A stretch of DNA of 64,000 bases from a virus. The stretch lies in IMG/VR virus record IMGVR_UViG_3300013383_000248; one strand, written 5' to 3'. Position 1 is the stretch's first letter. Every line of letters starts with the position of its first letter. Shown in pieces: positions 52,444 through 62,455 of the stretch. The notes under the pieces are model-generated. The model worked only from the letters and a program-made list of their open reading frames with translations, ran no database searches and was not told the origin of the DNA. Made by a program: the position numbers and the translations under genes.

Positions 52444-53626
52444 CGTATACTCTGACTATTTCTTACGGACTTTGTAGTGAAAGTGGTAAATTTTCTCGTC
52501 CGCACACCATTTCCAACAACGTGTCAATAGTTGTTGTACTCCAAGTCTAACCTTGGATAGTCGATACAATAGATTAAAAATAAAGTTATTTTTTCCTTAA
52601 AGGATAATTTAAATTATCTTTTTTATGAGAGCGGCCAGTATTTATATTGGTTACTGTAGATCTTGATTTATTATATTTTTTAGCAATTTCATTTTGAGTT
52701 AAATTAGTATTTAATAAATCATTAATAATTTTATTAACCCAAATTTCATTAGCTTTTTTGTTACATCCTTTTATATATAAAGGATAAGTTTCATTTTTAT
52801 CAAAAAAATATCTACCACTATTAATACCAGAAATAAAACCAATACTTTTAATATTAAAATCTTTTGCTATTGTTTTATAAATTTCTCCAGACTTTATTCT
52901 ATCTTTAATTTGTTTTATTTCTTCTTTAGAGAAATGGCTTCTATTTATTTCTTTTTTTAAAGGATAATCAAATAAAGGATTTTTAAAATTTAACCCGCTA
53001 TTAATATTTATAAGATATGAATACTTTAAACGTGGAGAATATTTTTTTAAAATTTCATTAAAATCTTTATTGGCTATTAATAAATTCTGTATATTAATAA
53101 TTTCATTTCCAGTAAATAGTTTTGAAGATTGTAATTTTTCTTTATAAGTTTTTTCCTTCGGAGAAAATCCTTGTCCTCCTTGAGAAACATTATATCCATT
53201 TAAAGAAATTAAACTTTGATATTGTTCTATATAATATTTTTCTTTATCATCTATATAATTTTGGTCTTTACTATCATCAATTTCTTCTAATATAATAAAA
53301 TCAAAATTATTTAATCCATATTTTCTAATAGCATTATGGAATGGTATATTATAATCATTTGATTTAGGATTAAAAGAACAACTTTTATGTCCATTTTTTC
53401 TTTTTTGGATATTATTTGTTTGACCAATATAAATCTTCCCATTTATTTTATTTTCGTATTTATATATATATTTCATTTTTGCACCTCCTTATAATCTATT
53501 TCTACTTTTAATCTATCACGAGATTTTACCCTCGTTAGCAATTAATTTTATAATACTACCAATATTATAATGTAAATTAATTACCCCTATGACGAATAGG
53601 TTAAGTGTGTAAGCCCCAATCTCTCA
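52444..53626 (-). mobile_element. group I intron (~1183 nt) in dnaE carrying a GIY-YIG homing endonuclease gene
   Basis: Exon 1 ends ...AGCCU (53627) and pairs with intron GGGCU (P1, U.G at the splice site). The intron ends in a G at 52444. Splicing gives GYAFS-L-NHSLPYSF, collinear with E. coli GYGFNKSHSAAYAL. Intron flanks are GC-rich and structured; the homing endonuclease gene has its own AAGGAGG RBS. Confidence 0.7.
52586..53476 (-). CDS. GIY-YIG homing endonuclease (296 aa), intron-encoded
   Basis: Tracked ORF: MKYIYKYENKINGKIYIGQTNNIQKRKNGHKS.... C-terminal NUMOD/HTH-like repeats. No TAG codons. Confidence 0.85.
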   Translation of the reverse strand: MKYIYKYENKINGKIYIGQTNNIQKRKNGHKSCSFNPKSNDYNIPFHNAIRKYGLNNFDFIILEEIDDSKDQNYIDDKEKYYIEQYQSLISLNGYNVSQGGQGFSPKEKTYKEKLQSSKLFTGNEIINIQNLLIANKDFNEILKKYSPRLKYSYLININSGLNFKNPLFDYPLKKEINRSHFSKEEIKQIKDRIKSGEIYKTIAKDFNIKSIGFISGINSGRYFFDKNETYPLYIKGCNKKANEIWVNKIINDLLNTNLTQNEIAKKYNKSRSTVTNINTGRSHKKDNLNYPLRKK

Positions 53627-56169
53627 AGGCTAAAAGCATATCCTAACTGCGGTGCTACTGCTGTTTCCCAAAAATATTCTGCATCACTTTTATTATTAAA
53701 ACGACTAAATACCTGTTCCTTTAATTGAGGAATCTTAGCCATTTGTTTTTTAGCAACAACTTTACGTGCTGAGTTAGCTTCACCTAATGTAAAATGAGCT
53801 ATATCCATAAGGATTTCCATCATTTGTTCTTGTAAAGGGCAACAACCATAATATTTATCACAGTGTTTATGAAATTTATTAATAAGTTCTTGAGGCAAAT
53901 GATGTTGTTTCATTTCTTGATCAAAGGCTTGGATACCTTGGTGTTGAATTCGATAAAATCTATCTTGTTGTGATTCTTTACCTTTTTCAGACATAAGACG
54001 CATCATAGCATTAGCCGCAGTCATTTCCATAGGGTCTTGCGGTTTTAGTTTTTTGGCAATAGCTAATCCTACACCAGTAGAAAACTGGAAACAGTCTAAT
54101 ACATCGCCTGCTGCAAGATGGTCCCAAATATTTTGGTCTTTTGTATCTATTACTTCTGGATGAATATATTGATTATAAAATTCTCTTAAAGATAAATCAG
54201 GAATTTCTTTTGCCTTTAATAGTAATTCATAACAAGTAATAATCTTGTCAGAAGCTTCAGTCACAAGGAAATCATATTTAGTATCTCCAGCTGCTTCCGC
54301 CTGATGCAAATCCCAGCAAGTAATTAAATTACCACTAGGCGTTCTCATAAATGCTGCTGTATCATAAGGATCATCCCCATAAAGAATAACGCCAGAAGCG
54401 TGAGAAGAACGTTTATTAACAATACCGCCAATATAAATAATTATATCAAGAAGTCCTGGATATTCATTTACTTTATTAATAAATGTTTTAACAGGCTTTC
54501 TATCTTTGGCTTCATTACCATAAATAACATCGTCAATTTCCCATAAGAATCCACGTTCTTGCGGGATAAGAGAAGACATATACTGTGCTTCATCTACGTC
54601 AATACCATTTGGATATTCTTCTGACCTATAACCACGACAAGCAGTGAGAATAGCAGATTTAGTAGTTTCAGTGCCAAAGGTAGCAACCTGAATTAATCCT
54701 AATTCTCCACGTTCTTTGCGAATAGCTTCAAAAATTGCAGGACGTTTTGAAGGAGCTAAGTCAATATCAATATCAGGTAATTCAGCACGTTCTTTGTTTA
54801 AAAAACGCCAATAAGGGAGACCCCATCTTATAGGATCAAGCTGAGTGATACCTAATAAATAGTTAGATAAAAAACCAGTGGCCGAACCACGCCCTGGACC
54901 TACTATAGAGCCGCAATTCCAAAACAAATCAATATAATGTTTAAAAGTATTAAAGTAAGCAAAAAGGCAATCATCTAATTTTTCACCAATATCTTTTATA
55001 ATATCAGCTTCAATTTCAAGACGATTTAAATATATATCAAGTTTATCTTCAGAGATACTTTTATTATACATCTTTTCCAATAAAGACATATAACATTCAT
55101 TAACCCAATAACGTTCTTGAGGATTATCACTCATTAATAAACTACATAAAATAGGATATTGTTCTTCACGTTCACCATACCATCCAGCCAATGATTGAGG
55201 ATAATCTGTTACTTCTACTTTTGGAATTATTTGTTTTCTTTCAAGAGAGAAATCTTCAATTTTATTTTGAATTTCAAGAGTATTATTTAAAATTTCTTTA
55301 GCTATTTCTTCTGGCTGTTCTTCTATGTCTAAATATATAAAACAAGGTTCAATTAATTTAAAAACTTCATCATAAGTCATTAAATGAGCGAACTCATAGA
55401 ATTTATCAACTTCTCGTTCACCGTCTTTTGAATTAAGATAAGCTTTATGAATTGGTCTATCTTCTTTAGTTAGATAATGACTGTCTGTAGCAACTTCTAC
55501 TTTAATTCCATATTTACGGCCAATTTTATAAATCATATGATTTACAAGTTTTTGGTCTGCCGCTGTTGATGGTGCAATCTCTAAATAAAAATCTTCATCA
55601 AATAAATCTTGGCAAAAAGTAAGAAAAGTATCTATTTGTTTTAATGTTTGATATAATTCATATTTATTTTCTTGTTCTTGGTATTCTACTGCTTTTAATA
55701 AACAAGTTCCTAACTCTCCACCAATACAAGCAGTAGTAGCGATTAGATGTCCTTTATATTTTTCTACTATTGGCTTTAATTCACTCTTTAAAAGTGGAAC
55801 TCGTTCCATTTTTCTATCAACATATAAATTTTGCCAAGCAATTGAACTTAATTCTTTTAATGCTCGATAGCCTATAGCATCTTTAGCAATTAAAATAAAA
55901 TGATAATATTTTTGTCCTGTACTTCTATCATCAGTTAAATAAATTTCATTACCTAATGCTATTTTAAAATCTGGATATTTTTCTTTAATTTTTTTAGCAT
56001 ATTGATTTACTGTCATATGTGCAGAAAGACTTTCGTGGTCTGTAATAGCGATTCCCGAAAGTCCTAATTCAATAGCCTTATCAATTAAAGTTTCTGGTTT
56101 ATTTATGCAATCAAGTAAACGGAGGTTCGAATAATCAGTATGATTATGGCAACCAAAATAAGTACTCAA
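53627..56169 (-). CDS. dnaE: DNA polymerase III alpha subunit (DnaE), exon 1 (N-terminal ~847 aa; PHP, palm, fingers)
   Basis: TTG start 7 nt after GGAGG. N-terminal PHP motif HNHTDYS. The tracked ORF 53587..56169 runs 13 codons into the intron. Confidence 0.85.
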
Positions 56170-61104: not shown

Positions 61105-61473
61105 TTATATAATAATTCTTTCTTTATATAATTTAAGAAATAAATCTGGCCCTTCATCAGTTGGACTATCCTTATAATTAGTAAGCATATTCTTATCAAA
61201 AATAAAAGATATGTTAAAATAATTTCCATACTTAGCCTTTATTTTTAATAAGTTATTTTTTAAATGATAAAATTCTTCATCACCTATTTTTTGGAATTGT
61301 CTATCAAAAGCAATAATAATATCTTTCGCACCGACTTGCTCTAATAATTTCATTTGCTGAGCCGATACGCTGCTGCCGCAACAAGCTACCGTTATATCAT
61401 TTTCAAAACCAAAATAACTTTGATATTGTAAGGTTGACTTTTCCATATAATCCATTATTTCTAATGGTACTGA
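61105..61473 (-). CDS. dnaG: DnaG-type primase, exon 2 / C-terminal TOPRIM part (~122 aa; 5' boundary uncertain, 61455-61482)
   Basis: ...LEIMDYMEKSTLQYQSYFGFENDITVACCGSSVSAQQMKLLEQVGAKDIIIAFD... is TOPRIM-like. The frame is open upstream of the tracked ATG, through TAG codons. Confidence 0.7.
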   Translation of the reverse strand, partial: SVPLEIMDYMEKSTLQYQSYFGFENDITVACCGSSVSAQQMKLLEQVGAKDIIIAFDRQFQKIGDEEFYHLKNNLLKIKAKYGNYFNISFIFDKNMLTNYKDSPTDEGPDLFLKLYKERIII

Positions 61474-62455
61474 CTATATCTTCCAACTACTAATTATAGT
61501 TGCCACTGTTTCGAGATATGTACCAATAATATCTCTACTCCCTTTAACAGGATAGTCGATACAGGTTATCTATTTTTCCACATCTATTTTGCTCCTACTG
61601 AATGATTATTTCTTAGAGGATAATTATATCCATCAAGCCTATAAGATTGAGTTTTTCCATTTATTATATCTGAAATAGTGGAAGAAGAACAATTGAACAT
61701 TTTTGCTAATTCTTTTAAATTTTTATCATTTTTTAAAATTTCTTCATGAATTTTTTTACATTCTTCAGGAGAAAATTTTAATCCTTTAGTGCCTTTAGCT
61801 TTATTAGAACGAATAGGATATTTAATTCCAGACTAAGGTCTTCGTGCTCCAATATTTATATTGTATATGTGAGTTAGTGAAAATCCAGTTTTTTCACTTA
61901 TTTCTTTAAAAGAATATTTTTCATTCTTTAAATACTCAATAACTTCTAATATTTTTTTATCTTCATACATTGGTTTAACAGGATTTTTTCCACCAGTTGA
62001 TTGATTATAACCATTAAAATATGTATCATAATATTTTATCCAATATTTTTCTCTATTGTCTAATTCTTCAAGTGGAACATTTTCTTCTAAAACTATTAAT
62101 TGATACTCTTCTTCTCCATATTTTCTTATCCCTCGACTTAAAGGATAATCATACTCTGCTTTATTCATATTAAATGGGTCATATTGAATATGCTATTTAT
62201 GTCTATTTTTTAAGTTATTAGTTTGACCTACATAAACAATTTTACCATTACTTTTTTTCTTATAAGCATAAATTACATTCATAAAATCAACTCCTTTTCT
62301 CACTATTATATGAAAAATGAAGTTAGATGTTTAAATAGATTTTCCCACGGAACCACCTTGAATTTAAAAAAATTTTTAGGCTCCTCCGTTAGCTTGTTAA
62401 AAATAACAAACCCCATTGGTAAATGGTAAAGTGGACTAGGGCGAAACTTTCTTTT
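61474..62455 (-). mobile_element. probable group I intron (~980 nt) in the primase gene carrying a GIY-YIG homing endonuclease gene (3' splice site uncertain)
   Basis: Exon 1 ends GAGGGU (62456) and pairs with downstream GCCCU (62442-62438) as P1 with U.G. The upstream reading frame decays after IIFEG (the TOPRIM EG). The ATAGTCAG motif near the 3' end is shared with the dnaE intron. The C-terminal piece has no RBS. Confidence 0.5.
61833..62282 (-). CDS. GIY-YIG homing endonuclease (~149 aa)
   Basis: MNVIYAYKKKSNGKIVYVGQTNNLKNRHK-Q-HIQYD..., where the RxxxH Gln is a TAG. AAAGGAG RBS. The tracked ORF 61833..62168 is its C-terminus. Confidence 0.75.

Follow-up and report, generated by a model that had tools for sequence, protein, structure and literature searches.

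Three group I introns, very probably of two unrelated families, in a TAG-recoded gut phage sequence

In this work we ask whether three interrupted genes in a viral DNA sequence (IMG/VR record IMGVR_UViG_3300013383_000248, analysed over its full 64,000 nucleotides (nt) and referred to here as the window) owe their inserts to a single intron family that has spread through replication and structural genes. When TAG is read as a sense codon, three genes stay interrupted, namely those encoding the DNA polymerase III alpha subunit (dnaE), a primase and a late protein of 286 amino acids (aa), and we refer to their inserts as introns A, B and C, respectively. An earlier interpretation from the letters alone (the sequence-only reading) had proposed the single family because all three inserts share the element UAGUCAG. 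Our analyses make us confident of a different answer: the window belongs to a TAG-recoded gut phage with three group I introns from two unrelated families, comprising exactly two introns of one family (A/B) and one of another (C).

The inserts are true introns of group I in all three cases, as the sequence-only reading had supposed. Each is preceded by U and ends in G, and all three junctions coincide with the intron-less alleles of relatives, a comparison which that reading had recommended and which defines the insertion sites exactly. The empty site of intron A is seen in L247, L252 and L253, which join 53627 to 52443; that of intron B in L042 (~90% nt identical), which joins 62456 to 61443; and that of intron C in L325 and L322, which are contiguous at 1606/1607 opposite window positions 42216/42447. 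These empty-site relatives are about 79-93% nt identical over the aligned flanking pieces. A primase 3' splice site at 61453, which would add DYM, was ruled out by the L042 allele. The spliced proteins are colinear with uninterrupted homologs. Spliced DnaE contains the PHP, DNA_pol3_alpha, finger and HHH_6 domains (Pfam), and its junction segment aligns in a single piece with SPbeta YorL over 100% of the query (tblastn); the dnaE exons are contiguous in YorL and in 64 of 74 relatives. Likewise, single-piece tblastn alignments were obtained for the spliced primase with SPbeta YorJ and, over the junction, for the 286-aa protein with gut-phage contigs.

At the RNA level, the end of the 5' exon pairs with an internal guide to form P1 (AGCCU with GGGCU in intron A, AGGGU with GCCCU in B and CAUGGU with GCCAUG in C), placing a U.G pair at each splice site, and the core helices P3-P8, including the P3/P7 pseudoknot, are present with covariation in both families. 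From these features we infer splicing in vivo. Pairing of the guide with the exon end would form P1, free guanosine docked in P7 would attack the 5' splice site, and the terminal G of the intron would then replace that guanosine in P7, leading to exon ligation. Splicing would thereby restore DnaE, the Toprim motif of the primase and the 286-aa late protein (Table 1).

A single large family of phage introns, IA-like in layout, includes both A and B. From the 5' end, the order of elements is P1, the P3 5' strand, two hairpins, GCUA-P4(-P5), and P6 with a GIY-YIG gene in its loop. There follow UGUAUCGACUAUCC (the P7 5' strand), P7.1, GGAGUA, P7.2 with the loop UAUUGAUAC, GAAA, the P3 3' strand and P8, and the intron closes with AAGAnAUAGUCAG (J8/7 and the P7 3' strand), P9 and the terminal G. 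In P7, UAGUCAG is the 3' strand opposite CGACUAU; the helix contains a bulged A and is closed by a C-G pair. The R and S elements of both introns (UCGACUAU and AAGAnAUAGUC) match the consensus of the Rfam group I model RF00028. Querying IMG/VR with the 14-mer UGUAUCGACUAUCC, which A and B have in common, yielded 125 matches at no fewer than 120 loci, and 53 of the 125 matches show the same layout (P7.1, GGAGUA, P7.2/UAUUGAUAC, GAAA, P3', P8, AAGAnAUAGUCAG and a GAAA-capped P9); IMG/VR holds at least 53 copies of the family.

In a 30-sequence alignment of the A/B 3' domain, 87% of cells are paired and none of 500 shuffles reached the covariation score, with changes on both sides in 7/7 pairs of P7.2 and 6/6 pairs of P9. 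The P7 strand AUAGUCAG is kept in 28 of the 30 members and reads AUAGUCAA in the other two; ATAGTC was a selection criterion for this set, which leaves the trailing AG as the independent part of this evidence. When 'mini-introns' with the open reading frame (ORF) deleted were aligned by MAFFT (A3), P4 was misregistered between subfamilies, and this alignment was excluded from the counts in favor of a per-sequence helix table. Among the seven members tabulated, P1, P3, P2, P2.1, P4, P6, P7.1, P7.2 and P8 are complementary while differing in sequence, as is P9 in the four members that have it. Pairing between exon and guide covaries in the same way (AGCCU/GGGCU, AGCGU/GCGCU, AGGGU/GCCCU and GAGGU/GCCUC), and the pairing adopted as P3, between segments following P1 and P7.2, covaries in five variants. 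An alternative P3 for intron B (AACAAG/CUGUU, right after P7) was rejected, being conserved neither in Enterococcus phage EF1 nor in intron A.

When the window was searched with R1, a covariance model of the A/B 3' domain, only A (61.8 bits, E=6e-11, although outside the R1 seed) and B (108.1 bits) were found, with the rest at noise and no match to intron C at E<=10. The 3' half of intron B also matches the split-primase intron of phage EF1 at the identical site, between TTTGAGGGT and GAGAAATCG, and an intron in the terL-like gene of VRE9_3. Furthermore, introns at the dnaE site of intron A in L300 and L310-L317 (around 2870-3003) keep P7 as GAGACUAU/AUAGUCCAG, with R = GUAGAGACUAU and S = AUAGUCCAG in place of UCGACUAU and AUAGUCAG. 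This compensating variant preserves the helix with an exchanged closing pair and with the bulge on the opposite side, and the 7-mer is therefore variable even within family A/B.

Intron C, a compact element without an ORF, belongs to a different family, with the layout P3-P4-P5-P6-AACGCAUAG-P7.1-CCACGAG-P3'-P8-AAAGAUAUGCUG. Its P7 is CGCAUA/UAUGC-U-G, P7.1 is the only hairpin between the P7 5' strand and CCACGAG, P9 and P9.1 are both present, and its R/S variant is CGCAUAG / AGAUAUGCUG. Sequences 70-82% similar to intron C at the nucleotide level split terL, major capsid protein and tail genes in phages that infect Listeria, Exiguobacterium and C. difficile, in crAss-like phages and in others. 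The pattern AACGCATAG-N(15-45)-CCACGAG retrieved 126 IMG/VR matches from at least 120 loci; TATGCYG follows downstream in 81 of the matches, and TAGTCAG directly precedes the pattern in only 16. Copies with a matching S element number at least 81. An 18-sequence alignment supports P3, P4, P5, P6, P7.1 and P8, with 96.3% of the cells of 36 pairs paired and 23 pairs changed on both sides, values reached by 0/500 shuffles. The corresponding model, R2, scores intron C at 174.6 bits as its only match in the window, and does not match introns A or B. Extra hairpins that follow the P7 5' strand covary in both families, two in A/B (P7.1 and P7.2) and one in C. Michel and Westhof are reported to have set out the group I subgroup definitions, subgroup IA among them. 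For that subgroup, and for an IA2-like assignment in particular, the mark is a set of further pairings, P7.1 and P7.2, downstream of the P7 5' strand (PMC3984707, PMC2248736).

The element on which the single-family proposal was founded needs to be read against this structural background. TAGTCAG was confirmed exactly at the three described sites: at 52452-52458(-) within AAAUAGUCAGAGUAUACG, which ends at the 3' end of the dnaE intron (52444); at 61470-61476(-) within AUAUAGUCAGUACCAUUAG in the primase intron; and at 42299-42305(+) within CCUAGUCAGGGG in the late-protein intron. The last of these lies outside the range 52444-62455 to which the proposal was assigned, and the copy described as near the primase junction has its last base 26 nt upstream of the 3' splice site (61444/61443), which lies beyond the P9 hairpin. 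The suggestion that the motif forms part of P7 holds for introns A and B, where it is the 3' strand of this core helix. In intron C, CCUAGUCAG instead comprises the 3' strand of the unrelated P6 hairpin (GGCUAGG/CCUAGUC) and the first two bases (AG) of J6/7, such that the UAGUC match is structurally non-homologous, the very outcome that the sequence-only reading had named as counting against it.

That reading had also suggested comparing the motif's frequency with chance. Over both strands of the window we found eight copies against 5.41 +/- 2.6 expected, a value reached in 20/100 shuffles, and there is thus no window-wide enrichment; in four of the five copies outside the introns, the motif spells the codons TAG(Gln)-TCA in the reading frame of a late gene. 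Yet three copies lie in the 2425 nt of intron sense strand, where 0.10 are expected (Poisson P = 1.7e-4), a non-random concentration. P7 contains the guanosine-binding site, and P, Q, R and S are generic elements of group I introns (PMC3984707). In the RF00028 consensus, an R element (...AGACUA...) and an S element (...AAGAUAUAGUC...) are followed by a GAAA hairpin, the GAAA-capped P9, and the terminal G, and AUAGUCAG of intron A stands at the position of this S element. Since UAGUC is the generic S element, its sharing is not evidence for a common recent origin.

Several observations weigh against the assignment of introns A, B and C to group I. RF00028 gave no group I match, either over the whole window at the gathering threshold or for each intron at E<=10. 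In the A/B alignment, P7 is invariant and offers no covariation test, the sequences having been retrieved by that pattern, and P8 was misaligned by MAFFT and is only 46.6% paired. In intron A, P4-P5 is very short and the P9 hairpin is missing. Moreover, the two hairpins between the assigned P3 5' strand and P4 constitute a non-textbook order, for which reason the helix names in the 5' half of A/B are provisional. RF00028 also misses the copies of families A/B and C in related loci of other phages (even at E<=10 or E<=1), and we take its failure here as a limit of model sensitivity. Beside undetected family C and A/B copies, two related loci carry additional group I introns that RF00028 does detect, at up to 94.5 bits (L196 2780-2952 and 3624-3845; L006 3281-3525), so that several intron types adjoin within a locus. 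A blastn search of INPHARED with ORF-deleted intron A returned no match.

The proposal that all three introns are copies of one family, marked by UAGUCAG and spread through replication and structural genes, could draw on the group I identity of all three, on the IA-like extra hairpin after P7 that they have in common and on the over-representation of the motif within them. We nevertheless regard it as highly improbable, and in practice as already refuted: R1 and R2 divide the introns between them, the P7 helices differ (GACUAU/AUAGUC in A and B against GCAUA/UAUGC in C), covariation places the motif of C in P6, most family C matches lack TAGTCAG, and C has neither an ORF nor P7.2. The opposite view, in which the shared 7-mer is pure coincidence and structurally meaningless in every intron, is slightly less probable still. 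It would account for a window-wide count at chance and for the four plain TAG-TCA codons, but leaves unexplained the concentration within introns, the S-element position of the motif, the retention of AUAGUCAG in nearly all A/B members (for which the trailing AG alone is independent of selection) and the conservation of AGUCAGGGGC within the C subfamily.

A further reading, to which we give equally little credence, treats the inserts as non-functional, the genes being split or dead and the inserts representing free-standing endonuclease cassettes, inteins or artefacts of taking TAG as a stop. The RF00028 result would suit it, and TAG recoding does generate many false gene breaks in this window. 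These three breaks, however, survive TAG read-through, and dnaE and the primase gene contain no TAG at all; both are replication genes present in single copy, and many relatives within the phage lineage have them intact. The U before and the G at the end of each insert, the covarying RNA helices and the absence of any ORF from intron C also speak against this reading, and inteins are ruled out because the exon frames differ. Functional group I introns of two families therefore remain our reading, and the coordinates of their features are collected in Table 1.

Table 1. Coordinates of the three interrupted genes, their introns and associated features in the window
Feature	Position	Strand	Details
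dnaE exon 1 (DNA pol III alpha, PHP type)	53627..56169	-	ends in U53627
Intron A, group I, family A/B, 1183 nt	52444..53626	-	last base G52444
dnaE exon 2	50982..52443	-	contiguous with exon 1 in SPbeta YorL
Predicted dnaE ligated junction, ...UUUAGCCU to UAAUCACUC	53627/52443	-	would restore GYAFS-L-NHS
Intron A GIY-YIG homing endonuclease ORF, 296 aa, no TAG	52586..53476	-	P6 loop; Pfam GIY-YIG E=5.7e-11; PHROG 7168
Intron A P7 3' strand AUAGUCAG	52452..52459	-	pairs with CGACUAU 52563..52557, bulged A
Primase exon 1	62456..63220	-	ends ...UUUGAGGGU (FEG, Toprim glutamate)
Intron B, group I, family A/B, 1012 nt	61444..62455	-	last base G61444
Primase exon 2	61105..61443	-	begins GAAAAGUCA (EKS)
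Predicted primase ligated junction, ...UUUGAGGGU to GAAAAGUCA	62456/61443	-	would restore Toprim motif FEG-EKS
Intron B GIY-YIG homing endonuclease ORF, 238 aa, three in-frame TAG = Gln	61566..62282	-	Pfam GIY-YIG 1.6e-8
Intron B P7 3' strand AUAGUCAG	61470..61477	-	pairs with CGACUAU 61558..61552
Intron B P9 hairpin CCAUUA-GAAA-UAAUGG	61452..61467	-	6/6 pairs covary, 93% paired, 30 family members
Exon 1 of 286-aa late protein (PHROG 16490, function unknown)	42111..42216	+	spliced alignment
Intron C, group I, family C, 230 nt, no ORF	42217..42446	+	last base G42446
Exon 2 of 286-aa late protein	42447..43201	+	spliced alignment
Predicted late-protein ligated junction, ...GCAUGGU to GGAUAAUUA	42216/42447	+	would restore 286-aa protein
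Intron C P6 hairpin GGCUAGG-UUUAA-CCUAGUC	42285..42303	+	alignment A2 columns 76-82/93-99: 96.8% paired, 5/7 pairs double-changed
Intron C true P7 3' strand UAUGCUG	42378..42384	+	pairs with CGCAUA 42312..42317
Free-standing GIY-YIG gene, five in-frame TAG	49878..50411	-	between nrdD and dNMP-kinase-like gene; PHROG 314/7168

The sequence-only reading had noted an unusual density of homing elements, and this locus is indeed rich in them, with elements present or absent among close relatives. Its count of three GIY-YIG genes, two intron-borne and one free-standing, agrees with the Pfam and PHROG searches. Both intron ORFs carry the N-terminal GIY-YIG catalytic domain (PF01541, above the Pfam cut-off), with helix-turn-helix matches for a C-terminal DNA-binding module, and both match PHROG 7168/314; the enzymes of introns A and B are 35% identical to each other; that of B is 47.6% identical over its full length to the endonuclease of the EF1 intron, with which it has a common homing site. 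The free-standing gene scores 22.0 bits in Pfam, just below the cut-off of 22.6. It is absent from the close relatives L247, L248 and L250 and is hence a mobile insertion in its own right; window positions 50469..49891 correspond to only ~80 nt in L247. The stop codon of the intron A ORF lies ~9 nt upstream of that intron's own P6 3' strand (52577..52590(-)). In intron B the endonuclease stop codon lies inside the P6 3' strand, AAAUAGAUAA (61566..61580(-)), and translating ribosomes would therefore unfold P6.

Occupancy of the intron sites varies among relatives. The dnaE site of intron A (aa 848) is empty in the closest of the 74 relatives (97-98% aa identity), occupied by R1-positive introns in eight, and seen to be occupied in the distant homologs L048, L097, L107, L300 and L310-317; dnaE of other relatives is occupied elsewhere, near aa 145, 465 and 975. 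The site of intron B is also occupied in the primase genes of EF1 and L068, the L068 intron being 79.8% identical to intron B in nucleotides compared with 62-72% for the flanking primase exons. Most of the 80 homologs lack intron C, which L321 (98% aa) and L346 (60% aa) carry. The closest relative, contig IMGVR_UViG_3300045988_158846 (L042/L247), lacks introns A, B and C as well as the free-standing GIY-YIG gene. It has a ~1.0-kb family A/B intron with a TAG-recoded GIY-YIG gene in its helicase gene (L042, reverse complement 5031..6064), opposite window positions 63943/63936, and a ~1.1-kb insert in dnaE near aa 467 (L247, 956..2095), where the window has none. R1 does not recognize the latter insert, which may represent a further intron type.

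From this pattern we infer homing, in which the GIY-YIG enzymes would cut intron-less alleles in co-infecting relatives and repair would copy the introns in. Since intron C has no ORF of its own, it must depend on recombination or on a trans-acting endonuclease, the latter mode being known as trans or collaborative homing (PMC2988022). The additional PD-(D/E)XK-like nuclease that had been proposed next to terL was not recovered, as no such domain was found in the terL-flanking genes by Pfam or PHROG searches. The genes beside terL (window 113..2659(+)) instead match PHROG 5767, a phage sigma-factor family, here with a zinc-ribbon/HNH-like tail at the C terminus, and PHROG 3314 (unknown).

The genetic code of the window bears on both the gene models and the endonucleases. 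The sequence has 30% G+C, and TAG is a sense codon throughout (1-64000): stop-to-stop ORF content is 9,038 aa without read-through and 21,169 aa with it, and read-through opens, for example, a 3241-aa ORF with 116 TAG codons (17484..27209(+)). TAG is plentiful in late genes, including 14 in-frame codons in terL (2647..4410(+)). At four glutamine positions the intron B endonuclease and its L068 ortholog swap TAG for CAA or CAG (e.g. YVGqT vs YVGQT), indicating that TAG encodes glutamine; these swaps also show that the endonucleases have evolved inside a recoded lineage. Alignment of NrdD to PDB did not reveal the amino acid encoded by TAG, and a tRNA search found no tRNA gene, hence no suppressor tRNA, within the 64 kb. 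In the replication block, a RecJ-like gene (59351..61123(-), DHH and RecJ_OB domains) contains 11 in-frame TAG codons and its neighbors primase and dnaE none, so that recoded and unrecoded genes are interleaved on one strand. A small ORF with several TAG codons (MQMNPIQIIQ...) at 41848..42085(+) fills most of the apparent gap before the late-protein gene, and the non-coding insert at that locus is the 230-nt intron only.

It is a tentative and rather doubtful possibility that a code switch times intron mobility, with the endonucleases of intron B (three TAG) and of the free-standing gene (five TAG) becoming translatable only late in infection. If so, late reading of TAG would leave the intron clear of ribosomes during early folding and splicing of the TAG-free primase mRNA, and the endonuclease of the dnaE intron, which lacks TAG, would either have come recently from phages with the standard code or still be adapted to them.

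As to the identity of the phage, a megablast search of INPHARED with 50900-63300 turned up neither a near relative nor a near-identical phage. Its replication genes resemble SPbeta YorL (DnaE) and YorJ (primase) and those of Enterococcus phages EF1 and VRE9, and its terL PHROGs (15503/24618) match large phages of Enterococcus and C. difficile; on these grounds a crAss-like identity, first guessed from the 3241-aa ORF and the TAG recoding, was dropped.

Together these findings describe ordinary phage biology and not the spread of one intron family, and they leave the current understanding of group I introns unchanged. They correct the annotation of dnaE, primase and the late protein, and illustrate that a short shared motif is no evidence of intron kinship where UAGUC is the universal P7/S element. 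Modestly new are the host genes dnaE and Toprim primase, the recoding of an endonuclease with TAG as glutamine, and two very abundant families that escape RF00028, Rfam's single model, which implies that introns are likely under-called in gut phages. The locus furthermore offers a natural example of homing-site occupancy varying among phages that are roughly 79-93% identical in aligned regions.

Among known systems, introns A and B most resemble the subgroup IA introns with GIY-YIG genes in T4 td (I-TevI), T4 nrdD (I-TevII) and nrdF of the B. cereus group, which likewise interrupt conserved nucleotide-metabolism or replication genes. Common features are a GIY-YIG ORF looped out from P6/P6a, the pairings P7.1 and P7.2, the R and S elements, an ORF whose 3' end enters the structured core, and a sporadic distribution among related genomes; phages and Bacillus are the classic setting for GIY-YIG ORFs in P6/P6a and for introns in genes of this kind (PMC2988022, PMC2248736, PMC3984707). 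The overlap of the intron B ORF with the P6 3' strand parallels the conflict between translation and splicing at I-TevI (PMC2988022). Unlike those introns, the present ones reside in dnaE (pol III alpha) and Toprim primase, place two hairpins between the P3 5' strand and P4, include a member (A) with a minimal P4-P5 and without P9, have one endonuclease gene in a TAG=Gln code, and are invisible to RF00028, even though the consensus of that model, too, has AGACUA as R, AAGAUAUAGUC as S and a GAAA-capped P9 ahead of the terminal G.

Similarities also extend to other recoded phages. In Agate phages, a recoded endonuclease of a group I intron lies within an early gene that is not recoded, and the authors of that study proposed that its production is delayed until the late code switch (Borges et al., bioRxiv 10.1101/2021.08.26.457843), an idea to which the present TAG-code case can be added. 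The intron B endonuclease, with three TAG codons inside a primase gene with none, is arranged in the same way; the reassigned codon, however, is TAG (Gln) here and TGA (Trp) there, and the endonuclease of the dnaE intron is free of TAG. In Delta and Zeta crAss-like gut phages, stop codons are reassigned in late genes, and core genes such as those for major capsid protein, polymerase and primase contain many group I introns (Yutin et al. 2021, PMC7886860). The phage studied here is similar to these in being a gut phage with a reassigned stop codon and group I introns in core genes, and is distinguished from them by an SPbeta/EF1-like replication module, terL of PHROG 15503/24618, the absence of a crAss gene set and a moderate intron density of three in 64 kb.

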